The notes under the pieces are model-generated. The model made no database searches. It had not been told where the DNA came from and worked only from the letters and a program-made list of their open reading frames with translations. Below are positions 15,316 to 40,544 of a stretch of 64,000 nucleotides of DNA, one piece after another. The first letter of the stretch is position 1. Each line of letters begins with the position of its first letter. Source of the DNA: a virus (Duplodnaviria; Caudoviricetes); IMG/VR virus record IMGVR_UViG_2862611759_000001. The stretch is one strand, 5' to 3'. The translations under genes and the position numbers were made by a program.

Positions 15316-15357
15316 CTACCCCATATTCTATTGTCTTGACAATAGAATATGGGGTAG
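15316..15357. promoter_or_regulatory. Palindromic operator copy 1 overlapping a promoter
   Basis: Perfect 20-bp inverted repeat CTACCCCATATTCTATTGTC-TT-GACAATAGAATATGGGGTAG. Confidence 0.75.
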
Positions 15358-15425
15358 TGTCGTTTCCGCGCCGCCCACCCCGGCCCACGCACACCGCCCC
15401 TGCCCGACCAGCAGAAAGGCACCCC

Positions 15426-16145
15426 ATGACCTACGACGACGCCTCCGCCCTCTACAGCGACAACCACCTCCGCTGCGTCATCACCAGCTTCGGCGAGAAC
15501 CACACCGACAACCCCACCGGCGACGCCTTGCTCGTAGACACCCGCGCCCTGCGCAACCCCCCGGAGGACCCCGCCGTCCGCGAGCGCATGCTCAACTCCA
15601 ACGGCCTCGACCGAGAGGTCCGCCACTACGTCATGGCCACCCGCGGCGCCCGCGAACTCGTCTCCCGCAACGCCGAGAAGGCCCTGATCCTCCTCGACCC
15701 CAAGAACCAGAAGCGCTGGGTCGGCACCGCCCAGCCCACCCGCGTCGACATCCACGTCATGTGCGGTGGCGGCCGCCACCGCTCCGTCGCCATCGCCGAG
15801 GAGATCGCCGCCTACCTCCGCGCCGCCGACGTCGGCTGCGAGGTCGAGCACCGCCACATCGACCGCCCCATCACCACCAAGCCGACCACCGCCACCGCCG
15901 CCCCGGCCTTCGCCCGCTACACGCTCGAACCCGGGCACATCGACGTCGGCGTCTACGGCTGGGAGCTGAAGGGCATCCGCCCCGACGGCGACGCAATCTC
16001 CGAGATCCACGAGGCCTTCACCCGCGACGAGGCCGCCGATGCCGTGGCCGCCCGCAGCTGGGCCGACCAGCTCATCGGCGCTCCGCAGGACTGGCGCCAC
16101 GTACGCGAGCGCGGCTTCGACCGCTGGGAAGCCGGAACGCTCTGA
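15426..16145 (+). CDS. Stand-alone RapZ C-terminal-like domain protein with extra C-terminal domain
   Basis: ITSFG...DTRALRNP...GLDREVRHYV...CGGGRHRSVAIAEEIA...VEHRHI motifs; RBS GAAAGG. Confidence 0.8.
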   Translation: MTYDDASALYSDNHLRCVITSFGENHTDNPTGDALLVDTRALRNPPEDPAVRERMLNSNGLDREVRHYVMATRGARELVSRNAEKALILLDPKNQKRWVGTAQPTRVDIHVMCGGGRHRSVAIAEEIAAYLRAADVGCEVEHRHIDRPITTKPTTATAAPAFARYTLEPGHIDVGVYGWELKGIRPDGDAISEIHEAFTRDEAADAVAARSWADQLIGAPQDWRHVRERGFDRWEAGTL

Positions 16146-19613: not shown

Positions 19614-19939
19614 CTGCTCCCCTCCAACCTCTCGGCAGTCTCACCGGGGTGTGTGCCGGGTGGGACGGGCAGCCGAGTTCCCCGGCCCAGCTGGCGTCGG
19701 AGTCAGGGTTGTTGGGTGGAGACGATCGATTCCGGTACCGAGTTTACGGGCCGTATCGGATCACAAGTTCCAGGCATAGCGCGCTTTTCTGTGTAATGCA
19801 GGCAAACGGCGATTCCCCCATCGGGGTGAATCTTGGCGAGCAGCCACCATCAGACCTCCGCGCCGTCCTTGGGGATCGAGGCCCGCCGCGCCCCGTACGC
19901 TGATCACATGGCGCGGGGCCTGGTAGCGGAGGGTGCCCC

Positions 19940-22244: not shown

Positions 22245-22557
22245 GATCGTCTCCTTGTCTCCGAGGGCGGAGTCTGTCTCCGCACGAGGGCGCAGACAGG
22301 AGAGCCAGACGAGTCGTTTCGAGGGGCAGACTACGGCAGCGACGTCTACCAGCACACGCAAAGGGGCCGCACTGTAAGCCTCCTCACTTTCCGTCAAAAA
22401 AGATGCGGGCGGCCGTACTCGATCTTCAGAGGTTTCGCAGCGCGCAGCCGCCTTCATGGAGATCCGGCACGACCTGGGGGAACGACCCGGCGAATGTGTG
22501 CTCTCCTTGGATCAAGGCGCGGGGCCTGACGAACTTCTCTCGGGAGGTAGTGCCCCC

Positions 22558-23397
22558 ATGCGCCGCCCCGCGCTGTACCGCCCTACGCCGGCCGACACCG
22601 CCTGGTCCCACCCGTACGCGGGTGTCGACGCGCTCGCCGTCTTCTACAACTCCGGCGGCACCGAGCCGGTCGTGCCGCCCGCCCCGGTCGTTCCGCCGGC
22701 GCCGAGCCCGGCCGACATCCCGCCGCGCCCGACGCCGCCCGCGCCGCCAGCCCCCGCCGGTCCGGGCCCTCTCCTCGACCGCGACTCCGGCCTGCCGATG
22801 ACCCAGGAGCGCCTGAACACCCTGATGGCGACGCAGCAGGGCCGCGGCCGCCGCAAGCTGCTCCGCGAGCTCGCCGAGGCGTCCGGCCTCTCCATCGACG
22901 TCGACAACTTCGACCCGACCACCTTCGGGACCCTGCTCAAGGGCGCCGAGGACGCACGGAAGGCACAGCTCACCGAGGCGCAGAAGACGGCGGAGGAACT
23001 CACCGCCCGGGAGGCGGCCCTGACGGCCCGGGAGCAGGCCGCGCAGGCCCGCGAGGACGCCGCTGCCGCCCGCGACCGCGAGTCCAAGGTCCGTGCCGCG
23101 CTCGCCCGCCTCAACGCCCACGGTGACGACCAGGACGACGCGTACGAGCTGGTCAAGGGCAAGCTCCCCGACGGCGCCGACGACGCGGCCATCACCGCGG
23201 CCGCCGAAGCGCTCAAGGAGCGCCGCCCGACGCTCTTCGGCGGCACCCCCGCGGCGCCCCCGCTCCCGCCCGCCCCCGGTGGCGCCCCGGCCGGCGGCCC
23301 GCCGCCGCGCACCCCCGCTGGCGGCAAGGACGCCCTCCGAGAGGCGGCCCGCCAGCGCGCGATCGACATGGGGCTGCGCTCGGCCGACGCCGCCTGA
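22558..23397 (+). CDS. Capsid scaffolding protein
   Basis: Pro-rich N-terminus; coiled coil; LKERRPTLFG motif; position between portal and capsid. Confidence 0.8.
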   Translation: MRRPALYRPTPADTAWSHPYAGVDALAVFYNSGGTEPVVPPAPVVPPAPSPADIPPRPTPPAPPAPAGPGPLLDRDSGLPMTQERLNTLMATQQGRGRRKLLRELAEASGLSIDVDNFDPTTFGTLLKGAEDARKAQLTEAQKTAEELTAREAALTAREQAAQAREDAAAARDRESKVRAALARLNAHGDDQDDAYELVKGKLPDGADDAAITAAAEALKERRPTLFGGTPAAPPLPPAPGGAPAGGPPPRTPAGGKDALREAARQRAIDMGLRSADAA

Positions 23398-23423
23398 CCA
23401 ACCCGCACCACCACAGCCTGGGA

Positions 23424-23461
23424 CCACGCCCAACCCCTCGTGGACGGCACCACGCAGTGCC
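23424..23461 (+). promoter_or_regulatory. Two-hairpin late-gene leader motif, copy 1
   Basis: CCACG-loop-CGTGG-AC-GGCAC-CACGCA-GTGCC. Confidence 0.6.
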
Positions 23462-23500
23462 TCACCACCGTTTCCGCGATCACCGCGAAAGGGGTTCGGC

Positions 23501-24235
23501 GTGGACATCCAGCCGTACACCACCAGCGAGACGCTCTCCGTCGGCCGCCCGTGGCTGATGAGCATGCTCGGCATCGAAGCGAACCAGACGGTCACCCTCG
23601 ACCTGACCGCCTTTGACCAGAACATCCACTGGCTGGAGGCGTCGAAGTACCAGCCCGAGAGGCGGCTGAAGTCCGGCATCCCCCTTGGCCGGAACACCGC
23701 CACCGGGCTGTACGAGCCGTACGCGGCCGTCACCAACGAGGTCCAGTCCGTCACCGTCACCGGCGCCCCGACCGGCGGCACATTCACCCTCACGCTCAAC
23801 GGGCAGACCGCCGCCGCCATCGCGTACAACGCGACCGCCGCGGCCGTGCAGGCGGCGCTCGTCGCCCTGTCGAACATCAACCCGGGCGACGTCACCGTCA
23901 CCGGCAACGCCGGCGGCCCCTACACGGTCACGTTCGGCGGCCAGTACCTGGGCGACAACGTGACCCAGATGACCGCCACCGCGTCCCTGACCGGCGGCAC
24001 CACCCCGGGCGTCACCGTCGCCACCACCACGGGCGGCGGCACAGCGACCGCCTCCGACGGCACCCAGCTCTTCGCCGGGTTCCTCTTCACCGAGGTCAGC
24101 TTCTACCCCGGCTCCACCAAGGCCGCCGCGCCGCTGATGGTCCACGGCCAGATCGACGTCGCCAAGCTGCCGGTCGCCTTCGACCCGAAGGACGTCCCGG
24201 CCGGCTCCAACACCCAGTTCGTCTACAAGGTCTGA
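23501..24235 (+). CDS. Head decoration protein with inserted beta-rich (GGTFTL) domain
   Basis: GTG at 23501; LKSGIPLG...GLYEPY and FAGFLF...HGQI..KLP halves split by an NEVQ...GGTFTL domain. Confidence 0.8.
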   Translation: MDIQPYTTSETLSVGRPWLMSMLGIEANQTVTLDLTAFDQNIHWLEASKYQPERRLKSGIPLGRNTATGLYEPYAAVTNEVQSVTVTGAPTGGTFTLTLNGQTAAAIAYNATAAAVQAALVALSNINPGDVTVTGNAGGPYTVTFGGQYLGDNVTQMTATASLTGGTTPGVTVATTTGGGTATASDGTQLFAGFLFTEVSFYPGSTKAAAPLMVHGQIDVAKLPVAFDPKDVPAGSNTQFVYKV

Positions 24236-24245
24236 GGAGGCCCCC

Positions 24246-25310
24246 ATGCCGAACGACATGCTTGAGGTCCTCCTGCGGGACATCAACCCGACCGAGATCA
24301 ACGCCTTCGTGCGCGAGATCCAGACCCCCGCGGACTACGCGCTCACCCAGTCCGTCTTCCCCGAGCGCACCGTGAACTCGGTGAAGTGGCAGATCCGCGG
24401 CACCCGCCGCCGGGTCGCCGCCGCCACGTACCGCGCCTGGGACGCCCAGACCCGCGTCGCCACCCGGCAGATCGAGCGCTGGGCGACCGAGGGCAAGCTC
24501 CTCCCGCTCGGCCAGAAGTACATCATCGGCGAGCTCGAGACCATCCTGGAGAACATCCAGCGCGGCATGGACTCCAAGGACCTCGTGACAGCCATCTACG
24601 ACGATGCGGCCGCGCACGTGCTGTCCGTCAAGCACCGCATGGAGCTCGCCGCCGGCGACTGCCTCGTCGACGGCAAGTTCACGCTTCAGGGCGAGAACAA
24701 CCTCATGCTGGAAGCCGACCACAAGGTCCCCGCGGCGAACATGCCGACCGCCCCGGTCGCCTGGACCAACCCGGCCGCCGACATGCTCGGCGACGAGCTC
24801 CGCTGGATCGAGCTGCTCCGCAAGACCGGCGCCCCGCGCCCGACCCGCGCGCTCACCTCCTACAAGGGCATGGCCCTGGCCATGGCGAACGACAGCTACC
24901 GCGCCGCGTACTACGGCTCGGTCAACAGCGCCTCCACCATCCCCACGGCCGTCCTCGCCCCCAACGAGGTCAACGTCGTCCGCGGCCGCTACGGCCTGCC
25001 GCCGATCGTCGACTACGACGTCACCATCCCGCTGGAGGACGGCACCGACGTCCGCCCGTTGCCCGAGAACATGTTCTTCCTCCTGCCGCCGGACGCCCGC
25101 CAGATGGGCGAGACCCAGTACGGCCTCACCGCCGAGGGGATGGTGCTGTCCTCGGGCGGCAACCCGTCCATCGACCGCGAGGAGGCCCCGGGCATCATCG
25201 TCACCTCCGGCTACGAAGACGACCCGGTCCAGGTGTGGACGAAGGGCGCTGCCGCGGCGATGCCCGTCATGTACACCCCGGACATCCACATCGCCGCGAC
25301 GATCTGGTGA
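24246..25310 (+). CDS. Major capsid protein (lambda E-like family)
   Basis: 354 aa; strong RBS GAGGAGG; RMELAAGDCLVDGKF and DPVQVWTKGAAAAMPV motifs. Confidence 0.88.
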   Translation: MPNDMLEVLLRDINPTEINAFVREIQTPADYALTQSVFPERTVNSVKWQIRGTRRRVAAATYRAWDAQTRVATRQIERWATEGKLLPLGQKYIIGELETILENIQRGMDSKDLVTAIYDDAAAHVLSVKHRMELAAGDCLVDGKFTLQGENNLMLEADHKVPAANMPTAPVAWTNPAADMLGDELRWIELLRKTGAPRPTRALTSYKGMALAMANDSYRAAYYGSVNSASTIPTAVLAPNEVNVVRGRYGLPPIVDYDVTIPLEDGTDVRPLPENMFFLLPPDARQMGETQYGLTAEGMVLSSGGNPSIDREEAPGIIVTSGYEDDPVQVWTKGAAAAMPVMYTPDIHIAATIW

Positions 25311-25315
25311 CCGCC

Positions 25316-25723
25316 ATGACTGCTGCCCAGCTTCGGACCACCGTCTTCGTGAAGGACCCCGACACCCACCAGACCGTCGAGCTGCACCCGGGCACCTGCC
25401 CCGAGCCCCGGCTCGCCGCCCTGGTGACCAACCCGTCCGCCTGGGTCGACGGCAAGCTCCCGCGTCTGCGCCTGCCGCAGAAGCCGGCGCCCGACGCCGA
25501 CCAGCAGGAGACGCCACAGGACCCTCGCCAGGGGGACGGCGACGGCCCGGGGGACACCCCGGGCGCCGACTCCGACACCGGATCCGACAAGGACTCCTCG
25601 CCCTCCGCCGAGCCCGACGAGGGCACCGAGGGCTCCGAGGAGAAGCCGCCCACCCGGGCGGCCAAGAAGACGGCCGCGCGCAAGCCGGCTGAGACCGCCG
25701 CCGAGGGCACCGGCGGTCAGTAA
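25316..25723 (+). CDS. Virion-associated hypothetical protein
   Basis: MTAAQLRTTVFVKDP...VTNPSAW plus disordered tail. Confidence 0.7.
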   Translation: MTAAQLRTTVFVKDPDTHQTVELHPGTCPEPRLAALVTNPSAWVDGKLPRLRLPQKPAPDADQQETPQDPRQGDGDGPGDTPGADSDTGSDKDSSPSAEPDEGTEGSEEKPPTRAAKKTAARKPAETAAEGTGGQ

Positions 25724-25812
25724 GCGAGTACGGGCCCGGCCCCGGTGGGGGCGCCAGGGCCGGACCCGTACCCGTGTCCCTTCCCGCCCCGCCGCCTACC
25801 CGGAGATCCCGC

Positions 25813-26148
25813 ATGGATGCCGCCGTACGCGCCTGGCTCATCTCGCAGCTCGGCACCAGCACCGACCTCGCCGATCTCGACAACCGCTACGCCCGCCTCG
25901 GAGCCGCCCGCCCCGTCGCCCTGGAGCTCCTGCGCGAGCGCCTCGCCGCGCTCATCCACGACCAGCCCAGCACCCTCGCCGTCTCCGGCGTCGTCTCCCT
26001 CTCGTACAGCGAGAACATCCGCGCCCTCGAACGGCACATCGCCGCCCTGGCCAACGGCGAGCCCCCGGCGCCCGACGACCCCACCGGCCCGAGCGGCGCC
26101 CCCGACGGCCTCGGCATCCTCCAACTCGTCGAGCGACCCCGCAGATGA
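25813..26148 (+). CDS. Head-tail adaptor
   Basis: Size and position after capsid; helical. Confidence 0.6.
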   Translation: MDAAVRAWLISQLGTSTDLADLDNRYARLGAARPVALELLRERLAALIHDQPSTLAVSGVVSLSYSENIRALERHIAALANGEPPAPDDPTGPSGAPDGLGILQLVERPRR

Positions 26149-26984
26149 CCACCCCGCTCCAGCCGGCCGCCCCAGAGCGCGACGCCGCCATCGCCTCCGC
26201 CGCGTTCGCGCTCGCCGCCGCCTGGGCCCAGCTGCACCGCGCCCAGCTCGAGACCATCCGCGCCCTCGAACTGCAGCGAGCCGACCGGGCACGCGGCGCG
26301 ATCCAGCGCGTCCGCCGCACCCTGCAGACCTTCACCACCGCGGTCGCCGTCTTCGACCGCGCCGCCCGCGCCGTCGCCGAACGATGGGCAGCCCAGGACC
26401 TCCCGCTGCTCTACCGCTCCGGCGCCACCCTCGCGCTCGCCCGCGCCCTGCGCCACCTCCCGCTCGACCACCGGTCGTTCACCTGGACCGACCGGCACCA
26501 GGCCGCCATCACCAGCCTGTCGGCGCGGTACTACACCGACCTCATCACCCGCATCCAGGAGACCGTCCGCCGCGCGCAGGCCTTCACCCGCACCGCGCAG
26601 GTCCAGGCCCGCACCACGGCCGGCGTCGACCGCCGAGCCCTCCTCGACCGGCACGGACTGGACACCGTCGTCTACCGCAACGCCGCCAAGCACCCCGTGG
26701 ACGCCTGGGCCCGCGCCGCCCTCGGCCAGCAAGCCACCACCACCGTCAACACCGCCGCCCTCACCCTGGGCCGCTACGACCTCGACGCCCACTGGTTCGA
26801 GTGCATCGACGGCAGCGAGTGCGGCTTCACCGGCCACAACGACCTCGACAAGGCCAACGGCACCATCCGCTCCGCCGAAGACGCCGAGACCTGGCCCATC
26901 GCCCACTTCGGCTGCATCCGCCAGTGGATCCCCCGCCCCGACCTCACCACCGCCCCCGGCCTCGAATCAGGAGCAGACCTCTGA
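26145..26984 (+). CDS. Minor capsid (MuF-like) protein
   Basis: C-terminal DGSECG...ANG...PIAHFGCIR motif. Confidence 0.65.
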   Translation: MTTPLQPAAPERDAAIASAAFALAAAWAQLHRAQLETIRALELQRADRARGAIQRVRRTLQTFTTAVAVFDRAARAVAERWAAQDLPLLYRSGATLALARALRHLPLDHRSFTWTDRHQAAITSLSARYYTDLITRIQETVRRAQAFTRTAQVQARTTAGVDRRALLDRHGLDTVVYRNAAKHPVDAWARAALGQQATTTVNTAALTLGRYDLDAHWFECIDGSECGFTGHNDLDKANGTIRSAEDAETWPIAHFGCIRQWIPRPDLTTAPGLESGADL

Positions 26985-27205
26985 TGCGGATCTACATCAC
27001 CGACGGCACCCGCACCGTGCAGCTCACCGCCAGCACGCGCGAGCGGACCAGCCTGAAGGACGCCGAGAAGACCGTCCGCCGCCTGTTCGCCGCGCTCCCC
27101 GGCCCGGCCCCGGACAAGCCGAACCCGATCGGCTTCACCGTCGCCGTGCGCTCCGGCACCGAACTCGCCAACGACTCCGACGGAACCGAGGAGGACCGGG
27201 CGTGA
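26984..27205 (+). CDS. Small hypothetical protein
   Basis: Coupled start; PNPIGF motif. Confidence 0.6.
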   Translation: MRIYITDGTRTVQLTASTRERTSLKDAEKTVRRLFAALPGPAPDKPNPIGFTVAVRSGTELANDSDGTEEDRA

Positions 27206-27579
27206 ACGAACAGACCTTCGCCGACGAACCGCACACCGTCCGCATCACCGCCGACGGCCACACCGCCACCGTCGTCCTCGACGGTGCCGACATGAGCAGG
27301 GCGCTCGCCGGCTACACCCTGGAGCACCGCGTCGGGCAGCCGCCGCTCCTCGTCCTGTACCCCTCGCCCCGCCACTCCGCCGCCTTCGACGGCCTGGCGC
27401 ACGTCGCCGTCGCCGAGACGACCGACCCGGGCCCGGCCGTCGCCGAGTTCCTGCGCCACATCAACCCGACCGCGCTCGACCAGGCCGCGCTCCAGCGCAA
27501 CGACCTCGACGGCTCCCCGAACGAGCTCACGAAGGCGATGCTGGCGCAGCTCATCGACTGGGCGGAGGGCCGCACATGA
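27202..27579 (+). CDS. Hypothetical protein
   Basis: RBS GAGGAGG; coupled. Confidence 0.7.
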   Translation: MNEQTFADEPHTVRITADGHTATVVLDGADMSRALAGYTLEHRVGQPPLLVLYPSPRHSAAFDGLAHVAVAETTDPGPAVAEFLRHINPTALDQAALQRNDLDGSPNELTKAMLAQLIDWAEGRT

Positions 27580-28031
27580 CCATCCCCCTCCCGGGTCTCG
27601 ACCGCGCCCTGGCCGGCGTCGTCCGCTGGATCGACAAGCACCTCCTCGTCGACACCGTCCGCATCGTCCTGCCCGGCGCGGGCGAGCCCGTCCTCAACCC
27701 GGCCACCGGGGAGCTGGAGCACCCGGCTGACACCGTCCTGTACGAAGGGCCCGGCGCCGTCATCCGCCCCACCGCCCAAGGCGACCTCGTCTCCATCCCC
27801 GACTCCCAACTCCCGTGGACCGGCAACATCCGCTCCCGCTACCGGCTCCTCACCCCGCTTGACCACCCCGGCTTCCCCAAGGACGCCCAGGCCACCATCA
27901 CCGCCGTGCACAACCCGGCCAACGCCGACCTGCTCGGCCGCTCCTGGATCTGCTCCGACGCCACCGACGCCGCCACCGTGCAGGCCGTACGCATCACCGG
28001 CCTCGACCAGAACCCCGGGCCCACGCCATGA
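27576..28031 (+). CDS. Head closure / DUF6093-like protein
   Basis: LLVDTVRI...LNPATG...VLYEGPG motif. Confidence 0.7.
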   Translation: MTIPLPGLDRALAGVVRWIDKHLLVDTVRIVLPGAGEPVLNPATGELEHPADTVLYEGPGAVIRPTAQGDLVSIPDSQLPWTGNIRSRYRLLTPLDHPGFPKDAQATITAVHNPANADLLGRSWICSDATDAATVQAVRITGLDQNPGPTP

Positions 28032-28414
28032 CCCCGGACGAGATGGCCGACCGCCTCGACCGCGCCGCCGCCCGGGTCCCCGACGCCATCTACAAGGCGG
28101 TCGACCACACCGGCGTCCTCGGCCAGGCCCGCATCCGCGGCAACGCGTCTGGCCGGCCCGGACCGAACGTCATCACCGGCGCCTACCGGCGCTCCTGGGT
28201 GTCAGTGCCTCGCCGGATCCCGTACGGCGCTCAGTGCACCCTCGGCACCACCGCGCCGCAGAGCCGCCGCCTGGAGTGGGGCTTCACCGGCATCGACTCG
28301 CTGGGCAGGCACTACGACCAGCCGCCGTTCCCGCACGTCGGGCCGGCCATCGACTTCATCACCATGACCCTCCACGCCCAGATGCGCTTCGCCGTCGCGG
28401 AGGTACTCGCATGA
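28028..28414 (+). CDS. HK97 gp10-like neck protein
   Basis: PNVITGAYRRSW...RRLEWG...QPPFPHVGPA. Confidence 0.8.
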   Translation: MTPDEMADRLDRAAARVPDAIYKAVDHTGVLGQARIRGNASGRPGPNVITGAYRRSWVSVPRRIPYGAQCTLGTTAPQSRRLEWGFTGIDSLGRHYDQPPFPHVGPAIDFITMTLHAQMRFAVAEVLA

Positions 28415-28860
28415 TCGAGAAGAGGGCCGTCACCAACGCCGTCCTCGCCCTCCTTGCCGAGACGACCGGCCTGCCCGTCGGCCGCGGCCGCCTCCCCGCC
28501 GGCGCAGGCCTGCGCTACTACGTCCTCTACAGCCTGGACACCGCCGTGTCCGGGCCGCCGCTGGCCGACGAGCACGACGACCTGAGCGTCGTCTACCAGG
28601 TGACGTCGGTGTCGGCCCCCGACCCGGCCAAGCCCGGCAGCGCGGGCAGCGCCGAGCAGGCGGAGTGGCTCGCCGACAAGGCCCGTACGGCGTTCCTCGC
28701 CCGCAATCCGGCCACCGGCCACTGGCTGCACGATCTGCCCGTCCCGGGCGCCGTCGTGATGACCCGTGAGCTCGACACCGAACCCGGGGGAACGAATGAT
28801 CCAGCCGATGCCATCATGAGCTACGTGCAGCGCTTCAGGTTCACCCTGACGCCCGCCTGA
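28411..28860 (+). CDS. Tail terminator protein
   Basis: YYVLY...YQVTSV...AEWLADKAR; directly before tail tube gene. Confidence 0.7.
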   Translation: MIEKRAVTNAVLALLAETTGLPVGRGRLPAGAGLRYYVLYSLDTAVSGPPLADEHDDLSVVYQVTSVSAPDPAKPGSAGSAEQAEWLADKARTAFLARNPATGHWLHDLPVPGAVVMTRELDTEPGGTNDPADAIMSYVQRFRFTLTPA

Positions 28861-28882
28861 CCCCGGTCAGGCTTGACCCGCA

Positions 28883-28922
28883 CCGCGGCGGGACCCCCAC
28901 GCGGACGCCACCACGCAGTGGC
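28883..28922 (+). promoter_or_regulatory. Two-hairpin late-gene leader motif, copy 2
   Basis: CCGCG-loop-CGCGG-AC-GCCAC-CACGCA-GTGGC. Confidence 0.6.
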
Positions 28923-28957
28923 CGCCATCACCACCGCGCCTTCAAGGGGTCCCACGC

Positions 28958-29749
28958 ATGCCCAGGTTCTCCCGTCGTGGCAAGACGAAGATCCTCTTCG
29001 CCACCACCATCGCTTCCAGCGCCTACATCCCCACCCGCGGTGAGCTCGGCACCGCCACCAAGCTGACCAAGGCCGTCGCCGCCGTCGAGGGCTTCCAGCT
29101 CGAGAACAGCCCGATCGACACCCCCGACCTGGAATCCAAGTTCACCTCGAAGATCGAGGGCGAGGACCAGGCCGCCGACTCCACCCTCACCTTCTACGAG
29201 GACGACACCGACGACGCCCTGGAGACCGCCCTGGCCAAGGGCACCAGCGGCTTCGTCATCTTCCTGCGCAAGGGCGACGTCCCCGGCTCCAACTCCATGG
29301 ACGTCTACCCGGTCACCGTCGCCTCGAAGTCCTCGACGATCACCCTCGACAACGAGGCCGCGAAGTGGATGGCGAAGTTCGTCATCACCGACACCCCCGC
29401 CCTGAACCTCTCGGTCCCGCCGGCCGGTACGGACGAGGTCCAGTCGATCGCGATCACCGGCACCCCGACCGGCGGCACCTTCACCTTGACGTTCTCCGGC
29501 CAGACGACCGCGGCCATCGCCTTCAACGCCGCCGCGTCGGCCGTGCAGACCGCCCTCGAAGGCCTCGCCAACATCAACCCCGGAGACGTCGTCTGCGCCG
29601 GCGGCCCGCTCCCGGGCGCCGCCGTCACGGTCACCTTCGGCGGCCAGTACGACGGCCAGAACGTGGCCCAGATGACCGCCTCGGGCGCCGGCCTGACCGG
29701 CGGCACTACCCCCGCCGTCGCCGTCACCACGACCACGCCCGGCGGCTGA
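28958..29749 (+). CDS. Major tail (tube) protein with C-terminal GGTFTL domain
   Basis: PTRGEL...TPDLESKFTSKIEG...MDVYPVTV tube motifs. Confidence 0.88.
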   Translation: MPRFSRRGKTKILFATTIASSAYIPTRGELGTATKLTKAVAAVEGFQLENSPIDTPDLESKFTSKIEGEDQAADSTLTFYEDDTDDALETALAKGTSGFVIFLRKGDVPGSNSMDVYPVTVASKSSTITLDNEAAKWMAKFVITDTPALNLSVPPAGTDEVQSIAITGTPTGGTFTLTFSGQTTAAIAFNAAASAVQTALEGLANINPGDVVCAGGPLPGAAVTVTFGGQYDGQNVAQMTASGAGLTGGTTPAVAVTTTTPGG

Positions 29750-29857
29750 CCCTCCGCCACCCCCACCCCGACTCCCGGCCGGGCGCCCCAGCGTTCGGGA
29801 AGGGGCGCCGCGAGCGCCCGGCCGGGTCCCCCCTTCCCGTGATGGAGGAACACCCCC

Positions 29858-30373
29858 ATGCCCCCGAAGACCCGCACCACCCAGTCGCCGGCCGCCCGAG
29901 CCCGCGCCCGCCAGCGGCCCGTGCTGAAGATGACGATCTGCGACGACGCCGCCATCAAGACCACCCTGGACCTCGCCCGGCATACGCTGCGCCGCGCGAA
30001 GGCCGACGCCGCCAACCGGCCCGGCGACCAGGTCATCGCCGAAGCCGTCACGCTCGCCCAGCAGGAGCTGGACGCCGCACAGGCCGCGTTCGACACCGAG
30101 GCGTACGACCTGCGGTTCCAGGCGCTGCCCCGCGGCGACTTCGAGGGCCTGAAGAAGCTGCACCCGCCCACCGAGGCCCAGGCCGAGGAAGGCTATGAGG
30201 TCAACGTCGAGACGTTCGGCCCGGCTCTGGTCGCTGCGGCGTCCCTGGACGAGCTCACCGTCGATGACGCCCGCAGCTTCCTGGAGACCTGGGGTGAAGC
30301 TGAGGCCGCCCAGCTCTTCAACACGGCCTGGAACGTGCAGAACGAGACCCGCGCGGACGTGGGAAAAGGCTGA
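29858..30373 (+). CDS. Tail assembly chaperone (G)
   Basis: Between tail tube and tape measure; ends in slippery GGGAAAA. Confidence 0.85.
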   Translation: MPPKTRTTQSPAARARARQRPVLKMTICDDAAIKTTLDLARHTLRRAKADAANRPGDQVIAEAVTLAQQELDAAQAAFDTEAYDLRFQALPRGDFEGLKKLHPPTEAQAEEGYEVNVETFGPALVAAASLDELTVDDARSFLETWGEAEAAQLFNTAWNVQNETRADVGKG

Positions 30374-30780
30374 TCGCCGATGACCGGTTCCGCACCGAGC
30401 TGGAGCTGTGCGACCGCTGGGGCATCCCCTACAGCCAGTGGCGCGGCGCCGGGACCGGCACCTGGACCGCCCGGGATCGGGAGATGGCCCTCGCCTACCG
30501 CGACTACACGCGGACCGTGTGCGCGCAGTGCGGGACCCGGCACGAGGACTGGGACCACGGCGGTAGCGACGACACCGAGGACGCCTACGTGGCCGTCGTC
30601 CAGCGGTGCATCGGCTGCCAGGTCATCGCCGACAAGCAGGAGGAAGCCGCCCAGGGCGGCGACCTCCACGGCAAGAAGATCGCGCTCATCCCGTACGCCG
30701 TGCACGCGGCCCGCGAGGTCGAGCGCGACCTGAAGGAACGCGAGCGGCGCGCGCGGCGCCGAGACCGAGACGACGAGTAG
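30361..30780 (+). CDS. Tail assembly chaperone extension (GT) via -1 programmed frameshift
   Basis: G GGA AAA at 30361-30367; the -1 frame is open (RLIADDRFRTELELCDRWGIPYSQW...) into ORF 30484..30780. Confidence 0.85.
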   Translation, partial: GKRLIADDRFRTELELCDRWGIPYSQWRGAGTGTWTARDREMALAYRDYTRTVCAQCGTRHEDWDHGGSDDTEDAYVAVVQRCIGCQVIADKQEEAAQGGDLHGKKIALIPYAVHAAREVERDLKERERRARRRDRDDE

Positions 30781-30795
30781 AAGGAGGGCGGCCTG

Positions 30796-33700
30796 GTGGC
30801 GAACTGGACCCTGTCCGTGGACATCCGGGGCACGGGCAGCAGCCTGTCCCGCGAGCTGCGGCAGGCCGCCACCCACTCCCGCGCGCTCGGCGCCCACACC
30901 CGCACGGCCCGCACCCACGTCGCCGGGCTCGGCCGCGACGCGAACACCGCCGCGCGCCACGTGCGCTCCTTCGGCTCGGCCGCCCGCACCGCCGCCCGCG
31001 ACGTCGACCGCTTCGGCGCCAGCGCAGAGCGCGCGGGGCTCCGCCTGGGCCGGTACGGCGCCGCCGCCCGCACCTCGCAGCAGCACCTGAACGCCCTCAG
31101 CGCGAACTCCCGAACCGCCGGCCGGGACCTGGCCCGCATGTCCGGGCAGATCGACAACGCCGTCCGCGACCTCACCCGCCTCGCCACCGCCGCCGAGCGC
31201 GCGGCCGCCCGCACCAGCAGGGTCGGCGACCGCGGCGCCGCCTCGATGCGCCGCTACGCCGACGAGACCGGCCGGATGCGCCACCAGCTCACCGGCGCGG
31301 CCGCGGTGCTGTCCGGCGGGGCGCTCGTCATGGGCGGCGCCGAGCTGGTCAAGGAGGGCAACGAGTACCAGCAGGCGATGAACACGTTCGGTGCCGTCAC
31401 CGGTGGCACGGCCGTGCAGATGCGCCGGGCGGCGCTGACGGCGAACCAGCTCGGCAACGACCTGAGCCTGCCAGCCGCGACCGCGACCGACGCGGCCGAG
31501 TCCATGGTCGAGCTGGCGAAGGCCGGCTTCCGCACCGAGCAGGCCATCTCCTCGACCCGGGCCTCCCTCGTCCTCGCATCGGCCGCGCAGGTCAACGCCG
31601 CCGACTCCGCGAAGTACCTCGGCGACATGATGGACCAGTTCGGCATGGGCGCCGACCTGGCGCAGGTCGCCGCCGACACCCTCGCCGCGACAGCGAACGC
31701 GGCGTCCGGCGACATCATCGACATCTACTACGCGATGAAGTACGCCGGGCCGGTCGCCCACGGCCTCGGCGTCTCCATGCAGGAAGCCGCCAGCGGCGTC
31801 GGCATGCTCGGCAAAGCCGGCATCCTCGGCCAGACAGCAGGCACCACCCTGCGCGGCATCTTCACCAACCTGGCCAAGCCGACCCCGCAGATGAAGGAAG
31901 GCCTGAAGGCCCTCGGCATCGAGGCGTGGACTGCCGAGGGCCGCTTCAAGGGCCTGCGGTACGTCGTCGAGAAGCTGTCCGCCGCACAGCACGACCTGAC
32001 CCAGCAGGACTTCACCGCCGCCGTCGCCAAGGCCTTCGGGAAGCCCGCCATGTCCGGCGCCATCGCGCTGGCCCACCAGGGCGTCGATTCCTACGACGCG
32101 CTCATCCAGGCCGTCTCCCGCACCGGTGCCGCCTCCGACATCGCAGCCGCCAAGGGCAAAGGCCTCGCCGGCGCCATGCTCCAGCTCAAGACCCAGGCGA
32201 GGCAGACCGGCCTCACCCTCTACACCGGAGCCGCCCCCGGCCTGGAGTACCTCACCCGCGCCGTCACCTCCGGGCTCGCCCAGGCCACCCCGAGGATCGA
32301 GCAGTTCTTCCAGTACGCCAACGACTTCGCGACCCTGTTCGGCCCCGGCATCGCCGCCGACGCCCACCGCACGTTCGGCGCGGTGCAGGACGCCGCCTCG
32401 GACATGCTCGCCCCGTTCACGGACGGCGCGCTCGACCTGGCGGCGACCGCCCTGCACGTCCTGATGACCGCCGGCCGCATGGCCGTCACCGTCCTGGAGA
32501 ACCTTGCCGACGGCGCCACCCCCGTCTTCGAAGCGCTCGGCGACATCACCAACGGCAGCTCGGGCGCCGCGACCGCGCTCGACACCGTCGTCTACGTCCT
32601 CGACCTCGCCGCCTCCGCGATCGAGGTCCTCTCCACCGTCCTCGGCCCCGTCGGCCAGATGGTCGGCGGCCTGGTCTCGATGTTCGGCGCGCTGCCCGGC
32701 CCAGTGCAGTCCGCCGTCTTCGCCATGCTCCTCATGCGCCGGGTCGGGCCCGTCGCCAGCGGCCTCGCCAGCACGGTCGGCGGCCGGCTCACCGGCGCCT
32801 ACCGCAGCCTCGGCGAGCAGATGCGCATCCAGCAGGCCCTCGCCACCGCCTCAGGCACCTCCATCAACCGCTACGGCGCGGCGCTCGCCGTCCTGCAGAC
32901 CCGCGTCACCACCGTCGGGCAGATGGGCGCCGCGTTCCGTACGGCCTCCGGCCAGGCCACCGGCTTCGCCAGCAGCCTGCGCGGCGTCACCGCCGCCGCC
33001 GGGACCGGCCTGCGCACCGCTGTGGGCGGCCTGGTGGGCGCGCTCGGCGGCCCGTGGGGCCTCGCCCTGACCGGCGCCGCCATCGGCCTCGGCATGCTCG
33101 CCTCTCTCCAGCAGAAGGCCGCGGCCGCCGCCCGCGAGCACGAGAACCAGATCGCGAACCTGTCCGCCGCGCTGCGCGAGTCCAACGGCCTCGTCGACGA
33201 GAACGTCCGCCAGGTCGCCATGCAGACCCTCATGGCGACGAAGATCAAGACGACGCTCGACGGCCAGCAGCGCCTCGTCGACGTCGCCAAGCGCGCTCGG
33301 ATCCCCATGTCCGAGCTCGTCGACGCCTACACCAACCAGGGCTCCTCCCTCGACGACCTCCAAGACCGCCTCGCCGCGGCCGCCGCGGCCCAGAAGACGT
33401 GGAACCTGGACGCCGAGACCGGCGTCGGCGCCGAGGGCTTCACCGTCGCCGGGCGCGCCGCCGACGACCTGCGGGTCGGCATCGGCGGCCTCGCCGGCGA
33501 CTTCCGCAAAGCAAAGGACGACGCCGAGGCCTTCGCCCAGGGCGTCGCCAAGGCCGGGAAGAACACCACCGCCTACGACCTGCTCAAGCGGTCCGTCGGC
33601 CAGCTCGCCGACAAGACCGCCGACGCCGACTCCCGTACCCGCGCCCTACGCGAAGCCCTCGACCTGCTGTCCGGCGGGTCGGTGTCCCTCCAGGCCGCGC

Positions 33701-36033
33701 AGGCCCGCGTGAACGAAGCCGTCACCCGCGCCACCGAGGCCATGGCGAACGGCATCGACAAGTCCAAGGGCTACGGCCAGGCACTCATCGGCCAGAACGG
33801 CACGATCAGCACCGTCACCGCCAACGGCCAGGCCCTCTTCGACACCTACAACACGATCGCCGACTCGTCGGCCGCCGCGGCGATCGCCGCGTACGACTTC
33901 GCCCTCTCCCAGAACCAGGGCGTGCCCGCAGCCATCGCCGCCGCGCAGCGGGAGATGAAGAAGGGCCGCGACGCCGCGCTGAAGGTCGCCGACGGCTACG
34001 GCATCGGCGCCGAGGCCGCCGAAAAGATGGCCGACTCCATGGGCCTGATCCCCGGCCAGGTGACCATCCTCCTGCAGACCAAGGGCGTCGACACCGCCCT
34101 CGCCGAGCTCATCGCCATCCAGGCCGAGTTCGCTCGGACGCCGAAGGCGAAGACCATCAAGGTCGACGCCCTCGGCGCCGACGCCAAGCGCGAGCTCGAG
34201 GAGATCGGCTACCAGATCGAGCTGATCCCCGGCACCCGCGAGTACAAGATCACCGCCCCGACGGCCCAGGCCCGAGGGCAGCTCGACCTGCTCATCGAGA
34301 AGCTTGCCGCGACCGACGGCAAGACCCTCGACATTAAGGCGCCTTCGGTCGCCGCCGTCCGTGAGCTGCAGGCCATCCAGGACAAGGTGGCCGCCACCCA
34401 AGGCAAGACCCTCACCATGGCCGCACCGACCGGCGCAGCCCGCGAGCAGCTCCAGCAGCTCGGTTTCTCCATCCGCGACAACGCCCGCGACAAGACGGTC
34501 ACCATCACGGTGCCCACCAACAGCCCCATCTCGGCCGCCGCCCAGATCCAGAACGCCATCGACAACATCCACGGCAAGCAGGTCGGCATCGGCGTCTACA
34601 TGTCGGCGTCGGCTGGCGACCGCGACGCCAACGGCGTCCCGGACATGATCCAGGCCCGCGCGACCGGCGCCGTCGTCGACTACTACGCCACCGGCGGCAT
34701 CCGCGGCCGCGCCGTCGACCCGGGGGACCGGCCGAACCAGCACATCGCGCAGATCGCCCCGGCCGGCTCCTACCGCGTCTGGGGCGAGCGGGAGACCCAG
34801 GGCGAGGGCTACGTCCCCTTCCGGACCGACGCACGCCCCCGCTCCCGCGCGATCACCGAGGAGATCGTCCGGCGCCTCGGCGGCGACCCCTCCGGCATCC
34901 AGTGGAACGCCACCGGGTCCGTCACCGACTGGCGCTACGACCCGCAGACCGGCGCCCTGTTCTCCCCCTCCGACGCCGGGCAGGCCGCGCACCGCACCAA
35001 GAAGGTGAAGGTCAAGGGCAAGGTGAAGGAGGTCGACTTCTTCGACCTCGGCGCCCTGGAGCGCAAGCTGAAGCAGTCGTCCGCGCAGATGCGGTGGTGG
35101 CAGGGCGACCTCGCCGTCGTCGCCGAACGCGCCGGTTCCGACGTCGCGCAGGCCCTCGCGTCCATGGGCGCCGACGGCGTCTCCCTGACCAAGAAGATGG
35201 CGCGCGGCTCGACCAAGTACGTCAACGAGATGGCCGCCGCCCTGCGCGGCCTGGCCACCACCGCGAAGGTGTCGCTGACCGACTACACCCGCTCCCTGAA
35301 CGCCGTCACCGCCACCGACGCGCGATTCGCGCAGAACCTGGCGACCCTCGCGGCCCGCGGCTACGGCGACCTCGCACGGCAGCTCGCCGCCCAGGGCGAC
35401 GAGACCGCCATCAGCCTCGCCGCGTCGGCCGTCGCCGACCGGCGCAAGGCCGGCACCGCGAACACCGCGGCGAAGAAGGCCAACGCGCAGCTCACCAGCG
35501 AGCAGGTGCAGCAGCTCGTCGCCGTCATCGCCTCCATCAGCTCCTCCAAGACCGGCCTGCACGACGTCGCCGCCACCACCGGCCTCGGCGAGGACGAGAT
35601 CATCGACATCGCCAACCGCGCCACCGGACAGATCCGGTCCGCCCTGGGCGCCCGCGCGGGCAAGTTCCTGACCGACCTGGCGAAGGCGAACCGCGGCCAG
35701 GCGTACGCCGACGGCGGCATCCGCGCAGGCATCTACAGCACGAACGCCGGCCTGATGACCTTCGCCGAGCCCAGCACCGGCGGGGAAGCCCTGGTGCCCC
35801 TCGGCGCCCACAAGCGCAGCAAGGCCCTCCCGGTCCTCGCCGAAGCCGCGCGCCGCCACGGCCTCGGCCTGACCGACGTCCGCGGCTCCCAGCAGGTCGT
35901 CGTCCTCAAGGACGCCGGCGACACCAACATCACCGTCTCCACGCTGCGCACGGGCGCCAGCGCCCGCGACATCGCCGCCGAGATCGGCCACCAGCAGCGC
36001 CGAGCGCGTCGAGGGGGAGTGGCAAACCGATGA
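30796..36033 (+). CDS. Tail tape measure protein (TP901-type core)
   Basis: 1745 aa, Ala-rich; ELAKAGF, YAGPVA, GQTAGTTLR and GGPWG motifs. Confidence 0.95.
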   Translation: MANWTLSVDIRGTGSSLSRELRQAATHSRALGAHTRTARTHVAGLGRDANTAARHVRSFGSAARTAARDVDRFGASAERAGLRLGRYGAAARTSQQHLNALSANSRTAGRDLARMSGQIDNAVRDLTRLATAAERAAARTSRVGDRGAASMRRYADETGRMRHQLTGAAAVLSGGALVMGGAELVKEGNEYQQAMNTFGAVTGGTAVQMRRAALTANQLGNDLSLPAATATDAAESMVELAKAGFRTEQAISSTRASLVLASAAQVNAADSAKYLGDMMDQFGMGADLAQVAADTLAATANAASGDIIDIYYAMKYAGPVAHGLGVSMQEAASGVGMLGKAGILGQTAGTTLRGIFTNLAKPTPQMKEGLKALGIEAWTAEGRFKGLRYVVEKLSAAQHDLTQQDFTAAVAKAFGKPAMSGAIALAHQGVDSYDALIQAVSRTGAASDIAAAKGKGLAGAMLQLKTQARQTGLTLYTGAAPGLEYLTRAVTSGLAQATPRIEQFFQYANDFATLFGPGIAADAHRTFGAVQDAASDMLAPFTDGALDLAATALHVLMTAGRMAVTVLENLADGATPVFEALGDITNGSSGAATALDTVVYVLDLAASAIEVLSTVLGPVGQMVGGLVSMFGALPGPVQSAVFAMLLMRRVGPVASGLASTVGGRLTGAYRSLGEQMRIQQALATASGTSINRYGAALAVLQTRVTTVGQMGAAFRTASGQATGFASSLRGVTAAAGTGLRTAVGGLVGALGGPWGLALTGAAIGLGMLASLQQKAAAAAREHENQIANLSAALRESNGLVDENVRQVAMQTLMATKIKTTLDGQQRLVDVAKRARIPMSELVDAYTNQGSSLDDLQDRLAAAAAAQKTWNLDAETGVGAEGFTVAGRAADDLRVGIGGLAGDFRKAKDDAEAFAQGVAKAGKNTTAYDLLKRSVGQLADKTADADSRTRALREALDLLSGGSVSLQAAQARVNEAVTRATEAMANGIDKSKGYGQALIGQNGTISTVTANGQALFDTYNTIADSSAAAAIAAYDFALSQNQGVPAAIAAAQREMKKGRDAALKVADGYGIGAEAAEKMADSMGLIPGQVTILLQTKGVDTALAELIAIQAEFARTPKAKTIKVDALGADAKRELEEIGYQIELIPGTREYKITAPTAQARGQLDLLIEKLAATDGKTLDIKAPSVAAVRELQAIQDKVAATQGKTLTMAAPTGAAREQLQQLGFSIRDNARDKTVTITVPTNSPISAAAQIQNAIDNIHGKQVGIGVYMSASAGDRDANGVPDMIQARATGAVVDYYATGGIRGRAVDPGDRPNQHIAQIAPAGSYRVWGERETQGEGYVPFRTDARPRSRAITEEIVRRLGGDPSGIQWNATGSVTDWRYDPQTGALFSPSDAGQAAHRTKKVKVKGKVKEVDFFDLGALERKLKQSSAQMRWWQGDLAVVAERAGSDVAQALASMGADGVSLTKKMARGSTKYVNEMAAALRGLATTAKVSLTDYTRSLNAVTATDARFAQNLATLAARGYGDLARQLAAQGDETAISLAASAVADRRKAGTANTAAKKANAQLTSEQVQQLVAVIASISSSKTGLHDVAATTGLGEDEIIDIANRATGQIRSALGARAGKFLTDLAKANRGQAYADGGIRAGIYSTNAGLMTFAEPSTGGEALVPLGAHKRSKALPVLAEAARRHGLGLTDVRGSQQVVVLKDAGDTNITVSTLRTGASARDIAAEIGHQQRRARRGGVANR

Positions 36034-36932
36034 CCGACCCGACCCTGACCACCGGGCAGCTCGACCTCGCCGGCGTCGTCATCGGCAAGGGCACCAGCGT
36101 CCAGATCCGCGACATCTCCGGCCTGGGCCGGCCGCCCGTACGCGAGGAGGACTTCGACCAGCCGTCCATGGACGGCGCCTGGCCCGGTCCGGACTACTAC
36201 GCCACCCGCGAGATCCGCATCGACGCCGCCATCCGCACCCCCGGTGACCGCGCGGCCGCCCTCGACGTCCTCGCCGCCCTCCAGCAGCCGCTGCACGCCC
36301 CGGCCGTACGCCTGGCCGGCGGCGCCACGCACACCCTGCGCATCGCCTGGCCCGGCCGGCCCGTCAAGCGCCTCCAGGGCCGCGTCCGGCTCCTCGACGC
36401 CGACGTACGCCAGGCCATCCACGGATACGTCCCCCTCGACATCTCCTTCGCCGCCACCGACCCGCTCTGGTACTCCGACACCGAGACCGTCACCGAGATC
36501 CCCCTCGGCTGGCTCACCGGCGGCGGGTTCCGCGCACCCGTTCACGCCCCGATCCACGTGCAGAACGGCACGGTCGCCGCCGACCGGCCCGGCTGGGTCA
36601 CCAACACCGGCACTGCCGACGCCTGGCCCGTCCTGCGGATCACCGGCCCGTGCGCGAACGTCACCGTCACCCACGTTCCCACCGGCCGGACGCTCGCCCT
36701 TCCCACCGCCAACCTGACCGCCGGCCAGTGGATCGAGATCGACACCCGCCCCGGATTCCGAACCGTCACCAGAGAGAACGGCGGCAACGCGCTCTCTCTG
36801 CTTGCCCCCGCCTCACGGATCGACCAGTTCGCCGTCCCGCCTGGGACCAGCGAGATGCGGTTCACCGCCTTCGACGCCACGAACACCGCCCGCCTGCGCC
36901 TGACCTGGCGCGGCACCTACACCGCCCTCTGA
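36030..36932 (+). CDS. Distal tail protein
   Basis: ATG at 36030; FAATDPLWY, NTGTADAWPVLRITGP and IEIDTRPG motifs. Confidence 0.8.
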   Translation: MTDPTLTTGQLDLAGVVIGKGTSVQIRDISGLGRPPVREEDFDQPSMDGAWPGPDYYATREIRIDAAIRTPGDRAAALDVLAALQQPLHAPAVRLAGGATHTLRIAWPGRPVKRLQGRVRLLDADVRQAIHGYVPLDISFAATDPLWYSDTETVTEIPLGWLTGGGFRAPVHAPIHVQNGTVAADRPGWVTNTGTADAWPVLRITGPCANVTVTHVPTGRTLALPTANLTAGQWIEIDTRPGFRTVTRENGGNALSLLAPASRIDQFAVPPGTSEMRFTAFDATNTARLRLTWRGTYTAL

Positions 36933-36942
36933 GGAGCGTCTC

Positions 36943-40384: not shown

Positions 40385-40452
40385 TCCGGCTCTCGGCGGG
40401 TGGAGCAGGGGGATCACTCCGGCCCCACCCGCCTACCCTGTGACCAGGGCGA

Positions 40453-40497
40453 CCCTCCGCCCACGCTCCACCCCCGAGGGACGCACCACCGAGTGCG
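40453..40497 (+). promoter_or_regulatory. Two-hairpin late-gene leader motif, copy 3
   Basis: CCCTC-loop-GAGGG-A-CGCAC-CACCGA-GTGCG upstream of the lysis cassette. Confidence 0.5.
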
Positions 40498-40544
40498 AAG
40501 ACCCACATCAGCTCTGGGCGCGGGGAAGATCTGGAGCACGGGCC

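Follow-up and report, generated by a model that had tools for sequence, protein, structure and literature searches.

The closest described counterpart of the element reported here comes from an RNA phage: in the 5' untranslated region of the maturation gene of MS2-type leviviruses, according to PMC4615214, an upstream complement pairs with the Shine-Dalgarno (SD) sequence, and a metastable hairpin delays this pairing. Here we analyze a structured RNA element that occurs three times in a 64-kb stretch of DNA from a virus of the Caudoviricetes (the window), which is the start of the 95.7-kb (95,688-base) IMG/VR virus record IMGVR_UViG_2862611759_000001 and has a G+C content of 71%. Post-transcriptional control of late genes in actinobacteriophages is, to our knowledge, almost unexplored. 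We found that each copy combines the sequence features of a compact H-type pseudoknot with those of a hairpin, and that the 5' half of the pseudoknot is complementary to the ribosome-binding region of the gene that follows.

An earlier, sequence-only reading of the window had reported three copies of a covarying motif, and we recovered all three, at positions 23424-23461, 28883-28922 and 40453-40497, all on the + strand. The pattern GGACN{1,3}CACCACNNAGTG gives 3 matches in the window, compared with 0.00 expected from 100 shuffles, and a scan of the whole record gives 3 matches on the forward strand and 0 on the reverse strand. The core of the second hairpin, CACCACSSAGTG, gives 8 matches when one mismatch is allowed, and of the 4 inspected none is a copy. 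That reading had also placed the motif about 35-50 nucleotides (nt) ahead of capsid, tail-tube and lysis genes: the distances from the end of the second hairpin to the start codon are 39, 35 and 47 nt for copies 1, 2 and 3, and the genes that follow are those for head decoration and major capsid, for the major tail protein, and for a 44-amino-acid (44-aa) open reading frame (ORF), endolysin and holin, respectively.

The anatomy is a different matter. The stem arms quoted in the sequence-only reading are complementary as written, but the motif does not consist of two simple hairpins. Each copy, about 45-60 nt in size, has the layout S1a-A-S2a-S1b-(C-rich L3)-S2b-AC-HP2, where S1 and S2 are stems with arms a and b, L3 is the third loop and HP2 the second hairpin (Table 1). 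S1 is 3-8 base pairs (bp) long and S2 is 5 bp long, with S2a = CCNNN and S2b = NNNGG, and S1b directly abuts S2a. The loop of the S1 hairpin is formed by a single A (loop L1) plus S2a, and S2a pairs with the downstream S2b, giving the topology of an H-type pseudoknot. What had been called the first stem is S2 of this pseudoknot, and its ACCCC loop is S1b plus L3; nor does that loop persist, as had been claimed, the C-rich loop varying both in sequence and in length (4-24 nt). When each sequence is folded singly, the stem that had been called the first is absent, and a helix flanking its 5' arm is returned instead. In 3/3 copies of the window S1 and S2 are perfectly complementary, and both helices covary among relatives. 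The loop geometry is tight on one side, where 1 nt of L1 spans the 5-bp S2, and on the other side 4-24 nt of L3 span an S1 of 3-8 bp. One-nucleotide first loops are known over stems of 6-7 bp.

To describe the covariation quantitatively, we aligned 99 distinct cores in register. In these cores 95.9% of cells are paired, compared with 64.1% in shuffles, and double changes occur at 9/10 pairs (all 5 pairs of S1 and 4/5 pairs of S2). The covariation score is 0.696 compared with 0.173 after shuffling, a value that 0/500 shuffles reach, with the reservation that the cores were filtered for pairing. When the partner strand is slid out of register, pairing falls to 44-56%. The compensatory series are extensive: S1 reads CCGC/GCGG, CCGT/ACGG, TCTC/GAGA or CTC/GAG at one site type; TGGG/CCCA, AGGG/CCCT or GAGGG/CCCTC, up to TGGGGG/CCCCCA, at a second; and GGGCG/CGCCC or AGCG/CGCT at the third. 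By site type S2a is CCACG, CCGCG or CCCTC, and each S2 sequence is constant across wide divergence, with a shift in Kitasatospora from CCGCG/CGCGG to CCGTG/CACGG. Beside these freely changing stems a few positions are invariant in all three site types, in Streptomyces and Kitasatospora alike: the single A of L1, the two outer C-G pairs of S2 (CC:GG) and the AC linker. The proposal that the motif is an RNA structure with covariation thus has strong support, and it extends to three helices (S1, S2 and HP2) over ~100 distinct copies.

The third helix, HP2, is present in 83/95 cores compared with 35.7% of 9,811 control GGAC sites, in 38 distinct stems, and compensatory changes affect three of its pairs, in 8, 15 and 9 of 39 site-3 leaders respectively. 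Its position is kept (0-3 nt after AC) while its sequence is free. The hexaloop that had been described as persisting, CACGCA or CACCGA, is common only to this genome and its close kin; the loops of other relatives vary, e.g. CTC, CCTT, CCAGA and ACCACA. Within a genome the HP2s are alike (G000, G001, L117), and between genomes they differ; in G001 all three sites carry sCACC-ACGCA-GGTGs. This likeness suggests concerted change or a genome-specific partner. HP2 does not resemble an intrinsic terminator, the sequences that follow it in copies 1-3 being TCACC, CGCC and GAAG, with no U tract.

The element is widespread among relatives, and it keeps its place. All three copies occur at the same syntenic sites, on the gene strand, in 7/7 near-complete relatives (G001-G004, G006-G008) and in the Streptomyces plasmid-phage ZL12, which is the closest named relative (68.6% identity across 71% of a 3.6-kb query); copy 2 is present in 9/9 IMG/VR loci recovered through the tail protein. 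A covariance model built on S2 and HP2 (R1) recovers sites 1 and 2, finds site 3 weakly and misses the Kitasatospora forms, and we therefore relied on explicit scans and on a MAFFT alignment of the cores. An independent sample consists of 42 loci from species-representative Streptomyces and Kitasatospora genomes that were fetched by tail-protein similarity alone: a pseudoknot lies within 210 nt upstream of the tail gene in 41/42 of them, and 41/41 of these pseudoknots have A as L1 and AC after S2b, neither of which the scan required. The lone miss (L112) has a single S1 mismatch. With the same scan there are 22 further matches elsewhere in the fetched stretches and 18 when the reverse complements are scanned, while a strict scan gives 78 matches on the gene strand and 7 on the opposite strand. 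In pattern scans of IMG/VR, site 3 was matched by 79 stretches, ~60 of them genuine and the others chance matches in unrelated contigs, and site 1 by at least 120 stretches, many in prophage contigs of 20-45 kb.

Some matches in these searches were set aside. Weak R1 matches elsewhere (G000 74392; L026, L027) are coding-like and lack the pseudoknot, and an apparent fourth site (S2 CGCCG/CGGCG; G002, L110, L121, L112) lies inside a tail-protein reading frame (…IDAAIRTPGD…) without HP2, which makes it a coding coincidence. Seven prophage contigs of a different group (L249, L263, L272, L285, L286, L314, L320) carry two site-1-type cores in tandem (~100 nt; GGGACCACGCCC … CGTGGAC), the second core with an L3 of 25 nt, in a different downstream context.

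What might such a structure do ahead of late genes? We observed that S2a, S1b and L3, the 5' half of the pseudoknot, are complementary to the SD and start region 35-80 nt downstream, and that in the nested minimum-energy folds of all three window copies this half pairs with the downstream initiation region. In copy 1 the initiation region lies in a 19-bp interrupted helix made of AACCCCT/AGGGGTT (the SD), CCACGCC/GGCGTGG (spanning the GTG start) and CTGGG/TCCAG, i.e. 7+7(+5) bp. In copy 2 GGGACCCC (28890-97), which takes in the final 3 nt of S1b and continues into L3, is the exact 8-bp complement of GGGGTCCC, and in copy 3 parts of 40516-40547 are able to pair with S1b and L3. In relatives the two partners covary, e.g. 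GCTCCT/AGGAGC, CCTCCCC/GGGGAGG, TGACCCC/GGGGTCA and TCCTTC/GAAGGA, as well as CCCTCTCCT/AGGAGAGGG, TTCCTCCC/GGGAGGAA and TCTTCTCC/GGAGAAGA. Across many lineages the pyrimidine loop L3 tracks the SD, flanks outside the SD core included.

The strength of this match depends on the site. Over 61 instances the duplex energy is -22.1 kcal/mol compared with -15.6 kcal/mol in shuffles, and at site 1 cognate pairs exceed non-cognate pairs, with the observed mean reached in 0/2000 permutations. In a wide site-1 set a perfect complement of at least 8 nt occurs in 15/79 sequences, compared with 1/79 when L3 is reversed, and one of at least 6 nt in 34/79. Both features of levivirus-type SD masking are found here: an upstream complement that covaries with the SD, in part only in the wide site-1 set, and a competing local structure that holds this complement. 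Because the anti-SD uses bases of S1b and S2a and L3 spans S1, the pseudoknot and the SD pairing would be mutually exclusive. The nested minimum energies of the closed fold are -49.6, -39.7 and -46.9 kcal/mol at sites 1, 2 and 3, and those of the knot-compatible folds, before S2 is counted, are -33.2, -23.5 and -38.3 kcal/mol, to which S2 as a free duplex adds -5.9 to -7.4 kcal/mol. Pseudoknot energies are poorly known, and within that margin the calculated open and closed states are similarly stable, which is compatible with a two-state leader.

Our leading interpretation, held tentatively and with slightly less than even confidence, is that each copy is a bistable mRNA leader in which the pseudoknot locks the anti-SD and the first ribosome site of the unit stays open. 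Each copy would be a cis-acting structured segment of late mRNA with two states. In the ON state the knot is formed, the anti-SD would be hidden, and the initiation region of the unit's first gene would be free; in the OFF state the knot is unfolded, the anti-SD would pair with the initiation region, and the ribosome site would be shut. Three points are inferred from the sequences: the presence of both folds in the cell, the assignment of the pseudoknot fold to ON, and the control of the balance between them. For the last, our best guess is that the pseudoknot, being 5'-proximal, folds first during transcription, and a factor that recognizes the invariant junction may assist it. Alternatively, RNase E might cut between A and C of the linker (A↓C), in which case the anti-SD would be lost and HP2 would become a hairpin that protects the new 5' end. 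The invariance of the L1 A, CC:GG and AC speaks for one of three things: that the junction has a specific tertiary fold, that a factor binds there, or that RNase E cuts at A↓C. The earlier suggestion of a translation-activating element fits the anti-SD and anti-start identity of the 5' half of the pseudoknot.

Several observations weigh against a two-state leader. The 99 cores were chosen for a perfect S2 and an S1 of at least 3 bp, which raises the percentage of paired cells artificially; at the two outer positions of S1, for which no selection was made, 86/99 and 58/85 cells are paired. Kinship among the sequences inflates the shuffle tests. The covariation would fit a true pseudoknot and S1 and S2 as alternative hairpins alike. 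At site 2 cognate pairs are not clearly above non-cognate pairs (the observed values are attained in 177 and in 99 of 2000 permutations), and at site 3 the candidate partners never vary and hence offer no covariation signal. In the wide site-1 set the complement is 4 nt or shorter in 31/79 sequences, and the mean longest complement is 5.46 nt, compared with 4.57 nt in permuted and 4.77 nt in reversed sequences. Some complementarity between C-rich loops and G-rich SD sequences arises from composition alone. The pseudoknot, the AC linker and HP2 are kept where no anti-SD match is seen, and therefore a role beyond SD masking is needed. A gate that can close also seems odd ahead of high-demand genes. 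The anti-SD pairing predicted from these sequences is real in many lineages, that of the window included, and it is not universal to the module.

One further arrangement was given no weight. In site-2 variants with long spacers an extra hairpin of a G-box and a C-box could be drawn as a relay; it fits G003 and L123, and not G002.

The retention of the module where the anti-SD match is absent is what the main rival would predict, namely a processing or stability module without translational gating, in which the pseudoknot and HP2 would form exonuclease-resistant ends. We consider this unlikely; the processing or stabilizing role suggested earlier would be a rival to gating or an addition to it. 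Copy 3 would have its knot at or next to the predicted 5' end of a transcript; in copies 1 and 2 a cut upstream of the knot or at A↓C would create a structured 5' end downstream and a structured 3' end upstream; and together with hairpins after the units, such ends would give longer half-lives to the head, tail-tube and lysis segments. In keeping with this, the position of HP2 is conserved and its sequence is not, GC hairpins follow the units at 25731-25768 and 29774-29826, and the AC linker is invariant, mycobacterial RNase E cutting single-stranded RNA 5' of cytidines with the motif RN↓CNU (PMC10641625). However, the linker context GGA↓CG(S) fits this motif only partly, the preference comes from mycobacteria and not from Streptomyces, and the long covarying complementarity of L3 and S1b to the downstream SD is left unexplained.

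The 5' end at copy 3 is predicted from a promoter-like motif. Its family consensus is GGGGsAAC-N16-CGTAssCTG, with fixed spacing in 61/61 anchored site-3 sequences, and the hexamer is missing in 2/63. In site-3 relatives the distance from the end of the -10-like hexamer to S1a is 5-10 nt (mode 8), and transcription is accordingly predicted to start where the pseudoknot begins. In its spacing and in the pattern AAC…CGTA the motif resembles promoters of extracytoplasmic function (ECF) sigma factors. Each genome has a second instance of it, ahead of the portal gene (window 19871-19901), and the two sites differ in what follows: at the portal site (19871-19918) the box GGCGCGGGG comes directly after the motif, without a pseudoknot, while at the lysis site the pseudoknot and hairpin stand between motif and box. 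No such motif is present at copies 1 and 2. The pseudoknot would thus not itself be the promoter, judging from these arrangements, and at site 3 it would form the extreme 5' end of the lysis transcript. The idea of a late-promoter signal is unsupported for the element itself: inside it only pairing is conserved, no -35/-10 is fixed, and its compensatory pairing is strand-specific, which argues for RNA and not for a DNA promoter signal. A consensus scan of 22300-42200 found no sigma-70 promoter or terminator at the copies, and a Pfam scan of 64/108 candidate ORFs found no sigma-factor domain. The only sigma-70-like match in 22300-42200 is TCGACA-17-AATGAT at 28772-28800 (+; 9/12 positions), inside the gene upstream of copy 2.

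The invariant junction leads to a second group of explanations, in which something binds the element. One proposal, which we hold to be fairly unlikely, is that the element serves as the sensor in a phage riboregulator of a new class: a single trans signal (a phage or host protein, or a small molecule signaling cell state) would dock on the A/CC:GG/AC junction, steady the knot and unlock the head, tail-tube and lysis units together; cleavage at the A↓C linker could then render activation irreversible, and the late genes of temperate Streptomyces plasmid-phages would have a post-transcriptional safety catch. Quite unlikely is the related proposal of an operator for a trans-acting RNA-binding protein or small ligand, in effect the two-state leader with a defined trigger, for which the L1 A, the two C-G pairs, AC and the base of HP2 would form a binding pocket whose occupancy steadies the knot and switches on the three units together. 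The invariant positions beside freely covarying stems, in all site types and both genera, agree with an operator, as do the constancy of S2 within each site type despite wide divergence and the resemblance of the HP2s within a genome (G000, G001). On the other hand, an aptamer would be expected to have more conserved unpaired nucleotides, the riboswitch models of Rfam give no match with E relaxed to 10, and no conserved phage RNA-binding protein was found. The sole candidate is an ORF at 15336-16142 (+), just upstream of the terminase genes, with the C-terminal domain of RapZ (Pfam PF22740, E = 4.6e-21), which we take to be an RNA-binding adaptor domain; as a partner protein it was rejected, being present in only 1/8 relatives.

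A signal acting on transcription, like the put RNAs of phage HK022, is improbable, and fits less well than processing or stability. Here the nascent knot and hairpin would bind RNA polymerase and carry it past terminator-like hairpins in a late region of >20 kb, each copy recharging the polymerase. The element is structured and strand-specific, its several copies all face the same direction of transcription, its two domains and the very short link between them would resemble put, a strong GC hairpin lies 0.9-2.3 kb after each copy, and copy 3 comes immediately after the promoter-like motif. However, these hairpins are without U tracts, and the consensus scan of 22300-42200 found no intrinsic terminator on the + strand and 1 match on the - strand, compared with 5.4 expected; the nearest hairpin at copy 2 is upstream of the module, and the anti-SD covariation is again left unexplained. 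Highly improbable, and likewise a poorer fit than processing or stability, is that the motif is a chance repeat or acts as DNA, in the manner of an operator or late promoter. The late promoters of P2 and Mu would offer a parallel for the regulation of three or four late units, and the weak sigma-70-like match lies upstream of copy 2, but the three helices conserve pairing and not sequence, the copies are all on the coding strand with varying arm spacings, and chance accounts neither for 3 matches with 0 expected nor for the element in 41/42 independently fetched loci.

The hairpins near the copies were observed in their own right. Relatives have a hairpin directly upstream of site 3, and the G(G/C)AAC that is conserved in the promoter-like motif falls within the loop of this hairpin. 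At window 23471-23489 there is a third small hairpin, a near-palindrome CGCGAT…ATCGCG, which in one subgroup adjoins the head-decoration SD (AAAGGGG). We also considered stimulation of stop-codon read-through or frameshifting and rejected it: the spacer from stop to knot is 16-62 nt and variable, unlike a recoding signal.

Table 1. Features of the three copies and their surroundings in the 64-kb window.
Feature	Position	Strand	Details
Copy 1 pseudoknot	23419-23445	+	S1a TGGG 23419-22; L1 A 23423; S2a CCACG 23424-28; S1b CCCA 23429-32; L3 ACCCCT 23433-38; S2b CGTGG 23439-43; AC 23444-45
Copy 1 HP2	23446-23461	+	GGCAC / loop CACGCA / GTGCC
Initiation region, head-decoration gene	23490-23513	+	SD AGGGGTT 23490-96; GTG 23501-03; complementary to 23418-23438
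Copy 2 pseudoknot	28877-28906	+	S1a CCCGC 28877-81; L1 A 28882; S2a CCGCG 28883-87; S1b GCGGG 28888-92; L3 ACCCCCA 28893-99; S2b CGCGG 28900-04; AC 28905-06
Copy 2 HP2	28907-28922	+	GCCAC / loop CACGCA / GTGGC
Initiation region, major tail protein gene	28946-28960	+	SD region GGGGTCCC 28946-53; ATG 28958-60
Copy 3 pseudoknot	40447-40482	+	S1a GGGCG 40447-51; L1 A 40452; S2a CCCTC 40453-57; S1b CGCCC 40458-62; L3 ACGCTCCACCCCC 40463-75; S2b GAGGG 40476-80; AC 40481-82
Copy 3 HP2	40483-40496	+	GCAC / loop CACCGA / GTGC; fifth pair C40482-G40497 possible
Initiation region, 44-aa ORF	40516-40547	+	Conserved box GGGCGCGGGG 40516-25; SD GGAG 40533-36; ATG 40545-47
Promoter-like motif before copy 3	40409-40439	+	GGGGATCA-N17-TACCCT; -10-like hexamer ends 7 nt before S1a
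GC-rich hairpin	25731-25768	+	After small gene following capsid gene; possible 3' boundary of head unit; by eye
Terminator-like hairpin	28855-28872	+	Includes upstream gene's stop TGA 28858-60; 4 nt before copy 2; no U tract
Strong GC hairpin, 13-bp outer stem	29774-29826	+	After major tail gene; possible 3' boundary of unit; by eye
Scaffold gene	22456-23397		Upstream of copy 1
Head-decoration gene	23501-24235		First gene after copy 1
Major capsid gene	24246-25310		Next after head-decoration gene
Major tail protein gene	28958-29749		Downstream of copy 2
Tail-fibre-like gene	ends 40384		Upstream of copy 3
44-aa ORF	40545-40679		First ORF after copy 3
Endolysin gene	40679-41740		After 44-aa ORF
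Holin gene	starts 41780		After endolysin

Gene functions around the copies (Table 1) come from PHROG scans. The head-decoration protein (window 23735-24031) and the C-terminal part of the major tail protein (29420-29749) have one domain in common, which also matches many actinophage proteins called tail sheath, major tail or minor tail. Farther away the window has a tRNA-Gly(CCC) at 48375-48458 (-), and Pfam matches of uneven strength to an integrase (under the curated cut-off), a C5 cytosine methylase, ParB, WhiB and Ku were found in the window (44572-45786, 49552-51624, 56838-58247) and in L108 (1455-2126 and 11654-12580). Together these are typical plasmid-prophage gene content.

We asked whether the element belongs to a described family. 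Rfam 15 gives 0 matches in the whole window at gathering thresholds, and around the copies, at E up to 10, it returns noise only (microRNA and CRISPR direct-repeat models at 8-22 bits, compared with gathering scores of 39-268). A full-text literature search found no description of the element, which does not prove its absence from print. We rate the element as a new structured RNA motif; its probable logic, in which alternative pairings mask an SD, belongs to a known type.

The motif covaries unusually well, and it occurs three times per genome in widespread Streptomyces and Kitasatospora plasmid-phages and prophages. On either reading of its function it would merit consideration as a new family in Rfam. 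If the two-state leader is correct, it would be a clear case in a dsDNA phage of a pseudoknot opposing SD masking, and would offer a portable, tunable part for translation control in high-GC hosts. If instead the module acts on stability, it would account for widely unequal protein amounts from a single long operon.

It is instructive to compare the element with known systems. The 5' stem-loop stabilizers of the ompA type, and RNase E processing in actinobacteria, share with it a structure at or near the 5' end, well-expressed genes and a single-stranded A↓C between helices; such stabilizers need neither an anti-SD nor a pseudoknot. The pistol ribozyme, often phage-associated, also has a hairpin loop pseudoknotted with a downstream segment and then a second hairpin, but there is no Rfam match, and the element is without the closing helix and the conserved linker nucleotides of pistol. 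The put RNAs of HK022 are cis-acting phage RNAs of two domains with a very short linker, present in several copies, with covarying stems and no conserved primary sequence; they are, however, two plain stem-loops near early promoters that act on RNA polymerase, whereas the first domain here is a pseudoknot linked to a ribosome site. The preQ1-I/II, SAM-II and guanidine-III riboswitches offer a 5'-leader pseudoknot of 30-45 nt whose folding sets access to the SD. Their conserved cores are unmatched here and Rfam gives no match; moreover the SD of the present element lies outside the knot and would be freed by folding, and there are three copies with different stems. The autoregulatory gene 32 leader of T-even phages has a compact H-type knot with a 1-nt loop 1, tens of nt before a phage ribosome site and serving translational control, but this knot is a single copy without an anti-SD, and from it gp32 begins to bind along an unstructured leader.

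In its logic the element comes nearest to the MS2 maturation leader (PMC4615214). In both cases an SD complement would shut the ribosome site, an earlier local fold that contains this complement would keep the site open, and the two mutually exclusive structures each show covariation. The MS2 leader precedes the gene of a protein needed in one copy, while the element stands before high-demand genes; and the trap is here a pseudoknot plus a hairpin with an invariant junction, set three times into the operon of a dsDNA phage.

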